Source of the DNA: Cyanobacteria bacterium P01_A01_bin.123 | GTDB taxonomy: Bacteria; Cyanobacteriota; Cyanobacteriia; Phormidesmidales; Phormidesmidaceae | Direction of reading: 5' to 3' | NCBI GenBank assembly: GCA_039815185.1 | Contig: JBCBZT010000022.1 | Span: 1 to 64,000, forward strand | Length of the DNA: 64,000 bases | The notes under the pieces: model-generated | What the model saw: the letters and a program-made list of their open reading frames with translations, nothing else | The model's database searches: none | Told to the model about the DNA's origin: nothing | In this document: positions 57,297 to 58,197 of the stretch, one piece after another | How the letters are laid out: each line of letters opens with the position of its first letter | How positions within the stretch are numbered: the first letter of the stretch is position 1 | Program-made: the position numbers and the translations under genes

Positions 57297-57674
57297 ATGA
57301 AAACAGAATTTGAATTCACCCTACCCACGGGCTACGTAGATGACGTGGGTCAGGTGCATCAGGTGGGTATCATGCGGCGATCGCGGGCAATGGATGAAAT
57401 CCTGCCCATGCAAGATCCTCGTGTGCAGGCCAACCCAGCCTATGCCACGGTGATTATTTTGGCGCGGGTGATTGTGCGACTGGGGACGATTGCTGAGGTG
57501 ACACCCCAGCACATTGAAAATATGTTTGCCTCTGATTTGGGCTATCTGCAAATGCTTTATCGCCAGATTAATAGTTCAGAGAATAGTCAAACCGGTGACC
57601 CAGACGGTGCAGAACCGATGCCCCCAACGGAGGCTGAAACAGAGCCCCTACCCGAGGCGTTGGTATCGGCATGA
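57297..57674 (+). CDS. Tail assembly chaperone-like eCIS protein, paralog 1
   Basis: TEFEFTLP.GYVD..G.VH..G.MR...A.DEI....DPRV..NPAY...IILARV..RLG...IE.MF..DL.YLQ.LY..IN. Confidence 0.85.
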   Translation: MKTEFEFTLPTGYVDDVGQVHQVGIMRRSRAMDEILPMQDPRVQANPAYATVIILARVIVRLGTIAEVTPQHIENMFASDLGYLQMLYRQINSSENSQTGDPDGAEPMPPTEAETEPLPEALVSA

Positions 57675-58063
57675 TCAACGCCCCATTCTCGCCGCCAACC
57701 TTAGTCTCGCCTGGGGTTTCAGAAGATATCGCCATCACCGCGATACCGTTTGAGTTGCCCCAAGGCCTGCAAACGGAAACGGGGCAGGTTTGTCGTCAAG
57801 GACAGATGCGATTAGCCACCGGGGCAGATGAGCTGATTGCCCAACGGGCGGTTCAGGTGATAGAAAACCAGGCCTACGGCGTTTTGGTACGGCTGTCACG
57901 GGTCGTAGCAATGACGGGTTGGCCGGGCCCAAATGTTCTGAGTCCCGATGATTTGGGAAATTCGTTTATGCCCGATCTGAAATATCTGCTGGAATTGTAC
58001 AACGCGTTGAATCCTCCTGATTATGGACTGTCACTCTTGGGGGAGATTCAGGCTATCCCCTAG
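57671..58063 (+). CDS. Tail assembly chaperone-like eCIS protein, paralog 2 (short, unshifted product)
   Basis: FELP.GL....G...R.G.MRLATG.DE, N.AY..LV.LSRV, F..DL.YL..LYN.LN; ends LGEIQAIP; ATGA overlap with paralog 1. Confidence 0.8.
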   Translation: MINAPFSPPTLVSPGVSEDIAITAIPFELPQGLQTETGQVCRQGQMRLATGADELIAQRAVQVIENQAYGVLVRLSRVVAMTGWPGPNVLSPDDLGNSFMPDLKYLLELYNALNPPDYGLSLLGEIQAIP

Positions 58064-58197
58064 AACTGCTTTATCAGGAGATAGCCTTTATTGCCTTTAA
58101 TTTTCACTGGTCTCGTCAGGATATTCTGGCGCTAGAACATCAAGAGCGTCAGCGCTGGGTAGACCACATCAACCAGCTACTTGGTCAGGGAGTGTAA
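58039..58197 (+). CDS. DUF6760-like domain with no in-frame start codon; probable -1 frameshift extension of the upstream chaperone
   Basis: Reads GGDSGYPLELLYQEIAFIAFNFHWSRQDILALEHQERQRWVDHINQLLGQGV*. There is an in-frame TGA at 58018-58020 and no ATG/GTG/TTG between it and the conserved YP..LY.E motif. Confidence 0.8.
   Translation, partial: GGDSGYPLELLYQEIAFIAFNFHWSRQDILALEHQERQRWVDHINQLLGQGV

Follow-up and report, generated by a model that had tools for sequence, protein, structure and literature searches.

Organization of the locus

The window, by which we mean the whole 64,000-nucleotide stretch of DNA that was analysed, carries a sheath gene, three gp19-type tube genes, two chaperone genes (G1 and G2) and, overlapping the end of G2 in the -1 frame, a DUF6760 domain (Table 1). 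Passages of PMC10020575 define an eCIS by Pvc16_N and AAA+ ATPase genes beside sheath and tube genes, and Pfam matches place both beside the sheath and tube genes of the window. The presence of AAA+ ATPase, Pvc16_N and response regulator-LuxR genes indicates that the locus is an eCIS rather than a prophage.

By Pfam, the three tube genes are followed by G1 and then by G2, so that the chaperone pair lies directly behind the tube genes. A tube-like match is found ≤1.6 kb from the chaperone in 185 of the 228 loci described below, as scored with a seven-sequence profile and with some of the misses being short loci. Downstream of the DUF6760 domain (hereafter T), the window has a 439-aa ORF (58200-59519, + strand) with no Pfam, PHROG or NCBIfam match, and then the gene for the 2,428-aa DUF4157 protein, which ends at position 66810 of the full contig. 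In other loci, a tube gene follows T. The organism is probably a cyanobacterium, judging from the closest named matches of its relatives. The same genome contains a second eCIS locus (L002/L260, contig C15:15731-16806) with the same G1, G2/T layout.

Table 1 Features of the eCIS locus in the window.
Feature	Position	Strand	Basis
AAA+ ATPase, Pvc16_N terminator and response regulator-LuxR genes	48102..52154	-	Pfam
eCIS sheath gene and three gp19-type tube genes	53576..57253	+	Pfam PF17482/PF04984, PF06841 (three times)
Chaperone paralog G1, 125 aa; no slippery site and no T	57297..57674	+	phrog_508, E 6e-5
Tail assembly chaperone G2, 130 aa, 0-frame product	57671..58063	+	ORF, phrog_508, fold, alignment
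TGA bounding the -1 frame upstream	58018..58020	+	Sequence
Slippery heptamer G GGG GAG, likely -1 shift site	58039..58045	+	Sequence, conservation in homologs
DUF6760 domain in the -1 frame (T extension), adding 50 aa past the slip	58045..58197	+	PF20546, P2 gpE' alignment, fusions
Predicted RNA hairpin, likely stimulator	58050..58087	+	-15.5 kcal/mol, z -2.64
eCIS_core (DUF4157) protein, 2,428 aa, 5' part within the window	59524..64000	+	PF13699, E 7e-30

G2 and its paralog G1 belong to a chaperone family

G1 and G2 are 34% identical over 92 aa. The tail assembly chaperone profile phrog_508 is matched by 20 of 21 members of the G family (best E 2.8e-9; G2 of the window, E 0.015), and PF10109 is matched weakly, by 7 of the 21. 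In the alignment, a CxxC motif present in most G relatives is missing from G2 of the window.

An AlphaFold2 model of G (pLDDT 76) has as its best solved match the HK97 tail assembly chaperone 2OB9 (Foldseek E 0.12). The top three solved structures in VIA-align are 2OB9 (Z 6.5, a middling score), 3KLU (6.5) and 3FGX (5.1), the latter two of which we take to be chaperones. Among the predicted viral structures of BFVD, the top matches include T4-like baseplate hub assembly proteins (E 1.6e-4), and Mu FS-gp41 is also matched (probability 0.99, E 0.035). At the sequence level, comparison of the G profile with the single sequences of P2 gpE (E 0.68) and Mu gp41 (E 0.24) gives no match, nor does the profile find any PDB sequence, and tblastn with G as the query matches no phage record. 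The profile and the modelled fold thus support the assignment of G2 to the tail assembly chaperone family, in agreement with the original prediction, which read this ORF as the second of two chaperone paralogs.

A slippery heptamer precedes a start-less DUF6760 frame

The open stretch of the -1 frame, 58021 to 58197, gives a match to DUF6760 (PF20546) with an E-value of 3.5e-11, above the curated cut-off. No ATG, GTG or TTG occurs among the -1 codons from 58021 to the Tyr codon of the YP motif (58054). The public gene call for this frame (P0002) begins inside the DUF6760 domain and is only 35 aa long.

The heptamer G GGG GAG is in phase with the G frame, where it encodes Gly124-Glu125. It lies 8 nt before the Tyr codon, and the G stop follows within five codons. 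A -1 slip at this site would join 125 residues of G to 50 residues of T, giving a predicted product of 175 aa. The anatomy is exactly as originally predicted, both for the start-less domain that overlaps G2 below the TGA and for the heptamer just before the YP motif.

The heptamer is of the 'five-two' type, as described for GGGGGAA in part of PMC10885494. The A-site codon needs a G-U pair at its middle position in the -1 frame, so that full re-pairing of both tRNAs is not achieved. The genome encodes tRNA-Glu(CUC), tRNA-Glu(UUC) and tRNA-Gly(CCC).

A lack of tRNA-Glu(CUC), which would have made GAG prone to slip, is ruled out as a cause of slippage, since the genome encodes that tRNA.

The -1 junction is conserved across phyla

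For comparison, loci were gathered by the T protein and not by a DNA motif. The window's own phylum supplied 26 loci, found in 23 of 301 genomes, and GTDB supplied the best 80 of 573 confirmed stretches, which are heavily Nostoc-like. Further sources are 16 IMG/VR contigs; genomes around Caldilineaceae (14 of 201), Polyangiaceae (62 of 151), Halobacteria (7 of 201) and Acidobacteriota (3 of 201), the names of these four sampled phyla being deduced from the title of each sample's central genome; and 17 of 38 plasmid matches, after omission of 16 near-duplicates, 4 cyanobacterial records and 1 Ralstonia record. Actinomycetota, Pseudomonadota and Bacillota are represented by plasmids only (11, 3 and 1 loci, respectively). 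Removal of 5 duplicates from 234 loci leaves 229. Since related loci are not independent, junctions were collapsed at 85% identity, which leaves 119. The genome of locus L183 (G879) is marked as unpublished; this locus counts as 1 of 228, 119 and 102, and no claim depends on it.

T is at -1 to an upstream chaperone in 228 of the 229 loci, from eight bacterial phyla, archaea and IMG/VR contigs; the remaining locus is a sub-threshold match at which no chaperone is found. The 119 non-redundant junctions comprise 102 with G GGG RRR, 7 with G GGG and a stop, 5 with T TTT TTY, 3 with G GGA AAN and 2 with none of these, so that 117 have a slippery site of some type. Before collapsing, G GGG RRR is found in 207 of the 228 loci. 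The slippery site and the -1 overlap expected by the original prediction are therefore conserved. The alternative site types indicate that divergent lineages use different -1-compatible sites at one and the same junction. The commonest heptamer is GGGGGAA (53 of 119 junctions, compared with 27 of the GGAG type), and GGGGGGR is also used. The invariant core is a run of 5-7 G's, and 22 of the 102 G GGG RRR junctions have at least six. The G stop comes 0-1 codon after the heptamer in 93 of these 102.

Control counts place the heptamer specifically at the junction. In phase, G GGG RRR occurs at only 3 of 9,479 other codon positions of related chaperone ORFs, indicating that its presence at the junction is more than chance, and it occurs at none of the 83 ends of chaperone paralogs that lack T. 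The site is also constrained at the synonymous level: its Gly codon is GGG, which makes up 20.8% of the Gly codons elsewhere in the ORFs, and the preceding wobble base is G, compared with 31.7% elsewhere. A separate search anchored on the chaperone yielded 30 loci, four of which repeat earlier ones. In this search, all 23 chaperones that are followed by T have GGGGGAR, and 22 of the 23 are scored at -1. The exception, L248, is in another frame, apparently because of an upstream break in G.

Several lineages depart from the common type. A myxobacterial subgroup (L158, L164, L210, L214, L216, L217 and L218, also L213 and L220) has G GGG directly before the G stop, and this type is often a second copy in its genome. 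Two of the G GGG-stop junctions have TAA and no start, suggesting slippage of a single tRNA at the stop. Haloarchaeal loci L029, L232, L176 and L177 have G GGA AAY 27 nt before the motif position, with no start after it in two of the four; other archaeal loci (L108, L178-L180) have G GGG GAA. Six IMG/VR contigs (L121-L124, L127 and L128) have a divergent chaperone, a longer T and T TTT TTY about 72-81 nt before the motif, and L125/L126 have G GGA AAG; these two IMG/VR types may come from eCIS or from phages. L007 and L248 have an apparent internal frame break upstream in G with an intact junction, from assembly error or decay.

A predicted RNA hairpin follows the heptamer

The original prediction described the slippery site correctly but missed a hairpin directly downstream. 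In the window, 4 of 200 shuffled sequences fold as well. The core stem has 6 bp, formed by GCUAUC (58052-58057) and GAUAGC (58080-58085), and starts 6 nt after the heptamer, within the 5-9 nt spacing of a canonical 3' stimulator. It is a compensated form of the common GCUACC/GGUAGC stem, carrying a double change from C-G to U-A (TAT with ATA). This stem pair (21:46) is C-G in 87 and U-A in 7 of the 102 junctions. At the second eCIS locus of the genome, the heptamer is G GGG GAA and the hairpin is uncompensated; G2 there has the CxxC motif, unlike G2 of the window.

Codon choice within the hairpin is biased. The Val codon in the stem is the rare GTA at 78 of 86 junctions, compared with a background of 8.6%, and at 25 of 26 in myxobacteria, where the background is 4%. 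Tyr is TAC in 91 of 99 (55% background) and Pro is CCC in 79 of 93 (35% background). Compared with synonymous resamples, the region folds with a mean z of -3.5, and 90 of 102 junctions lie below -1.65; a later stretch of T, used as a control, has a mean z of -0.3, with 20 of 102 below -1.65. The window's own hairpin reaches a z of only -1.6 by this measure. The 6-bp stem is intact in 84 of the 102 junctions and in 1 of 10 from actinomycetes. Synonymous constraint thus acts on the hairpin in most lineages, and most actinomycete junctions lack it.

With RNAalifold, neither the full set of 102 junctions nor the 92 from outside the actinomycetes yields a consensus structure. A consensus does emerge in cyanobacterial, myxobacterial and mixed subsets, and the stem is not recovered in Chloroflexota or Actinomycetota. 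Covariation is scant, in that pairs with double changes are not more frequent than in shuffled alignments (235 and 360 of 500), and Rfam has no match in 57900-58300. The hairpin is likely a stimulator of frameshifting.

Two further features are seen around the site. Actinomycete and some Chloroflexota junctions (L224, L226, L228, L233, L234 and L142-L146) have YA in place of YP and a longer hairpin in a different register. Upstream, pairing with the anti-Shine-Dalgarno sequence 15-20 nt before the heptamer averages -6.1 kcal/mol over the 102 junctions, compared with -4.3 kcal/mol in synonymous resamples, and is ≤-5 kcal/mol in 76 loci where 42 are expected. Judged by these energies, the Shine-Dalgarno-like element is a possible second stimulator. 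It is not counted among the parts of the window's frameshift signal because it is weak there (-3.0, p 0.34).

DUF6760 resembles the P2 gpE' extension and occurs fused to G

The T family profile aligns with P2 gpE' over 34 columns (hhalign probability 89.7%, pairwise E 1.8e-6), including the FHW motif. Matches to Pfam Phage_P2_GpE (PF06528), seen for 11 of 20 members, stay below significance (best E 0.019), and those to phrog_1756 are weak (10 of 20, best 7e-4). The T profile does not match the Mu extension, and a protein search with the 48-aa T domain returns only the window's own 35-aa call.

Natural fusions of G and T exist. Four complete in-frame fusions, falling in four 50%-identity clusters, are found among the best 150 of 587 T matches in 1.84 billion representatives. 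The proteins in which G and T are fused in frame (P0015, P0036, P0080, P0124, P0152 and P0153) are all of the short, CxxC-less type, like G2 of the window. Relatives of P0036 at 88% and 80% identity are also fused, and P0124 is found on 3 contigs. No full-length fusion is present among the matches listed in 401 genomes of the window's class. Fusion may conceivably have arisen where free G comes from a separate G1 paralog. A model of the G-T fusion (pLDDT 90) is similar to phage chaperones, among them, at weak E-values, proteins annotated as frameshift products; a search of the ESM Atlas with P0036 gives nothing above 0.79.

The fusions suggest that T works as the C-terminal part of G. Together with the P2 gpE' alignment, they back the earlier view of DUF6760 as the T part of a chaperone rather than a stand-alone gene. 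The likeness originally drawn was to lambda; of the P2 and Mu extensions compared here, the closest relative demonstrated is P2 E'.

Alternative origins of the T product

If DUF6760 were a separate small gene with its own or a coupled start, the GGAG or GGGG of the junction would be its ribosome-binding site. RefSeq indeed lists a 'DUF6760 family protein' as a gene in its own right, and in several plasmids the overlap is 4 nt. However, no ATG, GTG or TTG lies ahead of the YP motif in the -1 frame of the window, and at 48 of the 119 junctions (44 of the 102 with G GGG RRR) all three are missing from the entire open stretch of that frame before the motif. A start does lie within four codons of the motif in 30 of the 102, but 27 of these 30 are N-TGA overlaps, by-products of G's own stop, and such starts mostly lie 0-3 nt after the G-run, too close for it to serve as a binding site. 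The hairpin would cover the start region, and the commonest heptamer is GGGGGAA rather than the GGAG type (53 compared with 27). The two junctions without an accepted slippery site (L112 and L181) do have an ATG three codons before the motif, as a separate gene would. They are exceptions, and the pattern of homologs with their own start and no slippery site, against which the original prediction was to be checked, is not what the survey finds. From the start counts and the N-TGA origin of the near starts, a coupled start may add free T as an extra route in lineages with such overlaps and is not the general one. As the explanation of the junction, a separate gene is improbable.

RNA polymerase could instead add a G within the run, so that a share of the mRNAs encodes GT in frame. 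The invariant G-run of 5-7 nt, with at least six G's at some junctions, is what such slippage would act on. Five G's are nevertheless short for polymerase slippage. In addition, the run is locked to the codon phase, the alternative sites G GGA AAN and T TTT TTY are tRNA-slippage motifs, and a hairpin at ribosomal spacing is not yet transcribed when the polymerase is on the run and cannot act on it. We consider transcriptional slippage very improbable.

The natural in-frame fusions, which resemble the window's short CxxC-less type, would fit an assembly error or a broken gene, that is, one fused GT gene that has lost a base, but this is already refuted by conservation, since the same -1 junction occurs in the genome's second eCIS locus and in 228 loci, and by the contigs of other runs, which show no indel. 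Contigs of runs X2 and X3, both from the study that is possibly the source of the window, span the junction without gaps, and the sequencing indel that the original prediction had asked to be checked is not borne out. Contig X6, from another study, gives a gap-free match from 58021 on, with only 18 letters to the left of the heptamer.

Comparison with phage frameshift systems

Programmed -1 frameshifting at G GGG GAG very probably produces both the 130-aa G and a 175-aa GT ending in DUF6760, judging from the sequence of the locus and its relatives. The known phage G/GT mechanism would then likely operate in a new class of machine, the host-encoded eCIS.

The closest parallel is P2 gpE/gpE+E' (AF063097; PF10109, PF06528), with gpE+E' annotated as a -1 frameshift product in that GenBank record. 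P2 also has a contractile tail and a gene order of sheath, tube, chaperone with -1 extension and long gene. In contrast, P2 slips on a T-run and the eCIS on G GGG GAR with a hairpin; the eCIS is host-encoded, its locus includes Pvc16 and AAA+ genes, and a second paralog that does not shift often lies upstream; and P2 gpE is not matched by the eCIS G part as a single sequence.

Lambda gpG/gpGT and the G-T frameshift conserved among long-tailed phages, as described in part of PMC5009743, are similar in having a chaperone behind the tube gene, a -1 shift near its 3' end and a T frame without a start. In lambda, according to the same passages, many G and few GT bind the tape measure and T recruits the tube protein. 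The two differ in that lambda is a phage in which the 30:1 ratio and the partner binding have been demonstrated experimentally, whereas for the eCIS both are predictions.

The heptamers have precedents as well. According to passages of PMC10885494, chaperone frameshifts in SEA-PHAGES, about a thousand of them, have GGGGGAA as their standard site, which the 53 eCIS junctions noted above share. These actinophage genes are siphophage genes, and the likeness is one of heptamer only. The eCIS family goes beyond them in also using GGGGGAG and GGGGGGR. The haloarchaeal G GGA AAY is of the type reported in part of PMC5009743 for the haloarchaeal virus HCTV-1, which uses G_GGA_AAC. For HK97-like prophage chaperones, shifts of 6-7% have been measured (PMC3711429, in part).

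The 'Mu-gp41-like' ORFs of PLTS/eCIS clusters mentioned in passages of PMC4122934 are probably the same G genes. In Mu itself the shift is -2, unlike the -1 of the eCIS. The T4-like gp26/gp51 hub assembly proteins match the G model in structure but are about twice as long. T4 is said to use two genes, a report that goes under the name of Vladimirov (Virology, 2022).

The mechanism itself is textbook phage biology; what is new here is the class of host, the meaning given to DUF6760, and the hairpin. A search of freely available full texts found no report of frameshifting in an eCIS and no paper on 'DUF6760'. By term search, the word 'frameshift' is absent from the main text and six supplements of PMC10020575 and from the main texts of PMC11126660, PMC8894136, PMC4122934, PMC8213781 and PMC10066040; in PMC12180501 and PMC13222765 it is unrelated or within a reference.

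Proposed mechanism and function

We infer slippage, a stimulatory role of the hairpin, a G:GT ratio and binding partners along the following lines. The ribosome would pause at the hairpin with GGG in the P site and GAG in the A site. Peptidyl-tRNA-Gly would then move its pairing back by one base onto the overlapping GGG, so that a minority of ribosomes continue in the -1 frame and produce GT. Because tRNA-Glu(CUC) disfavours A-site re-pairing from GAG to GGA, slippage may be driven from the P site or be weak. The variant in which a stop follows G GGG suggests that slippage in the P site can be enough.

If the system works as in lambda, G would be made in excess of GT. The coat on a tape-measure-like protein would consist of G and of the G portion of GT, and the T portion would bring in the tube protein. 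DUF4157-type proteins have been proposed as tape-measure-related, with Tme as a precedent, in passages of PMC11126660. The 2,428-aa DUF4157 protein of the window is therefore a likely client of G/GT, although it stands as a candidate by analogy.

On balance, we lean towards a broader reading. DUF6760 would be the T half of the chaperone throughout, made by a hairpin-stimulated G GGG GAR shift in a large class of eCIS from at least eight bacterial phyla and from archaea. The tube would be built around a chaperoned ruler, probably a long DUF4157/Tme-type effector. Slippage would set the G:GT ratio, and the non-shifting paralog would adjust it in many cyanobacteria.

This reading offers a function for Pfam DUF6760 and for the conserved small gene or genes behind the eCIS tube gene in cyanobacteria, myxobacteria, actinomycetes and archaea, which databases annotate as two genes, often with wrong starts. 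It would also mean widespread -1 frameshifting in host genomes, archaeal hosts included, with a conserved RNA stimulator, and, if true, would make this one of the programmed frameshifts with the widest conservation across prokaryotic genomes. For the Streptomyces CIS, Casu et al. report no typical tape measure (PMC10066040, in part). Since G/GT chaperones exist to load a tape measure, their retention in such CIS would point to a hidden ruler, and Streptomyces-type systems would also build their tube around a chaperoned ruler. In practice, recoding such clusters during refactoring would destroy a signal hidden in synonymous codons.

A second large eCIS_core (DUF4157) protein, of 1,125 aa, is encoded at 43709-47086 on the - strand, and the two DUF4157 proteins flank the cluster.
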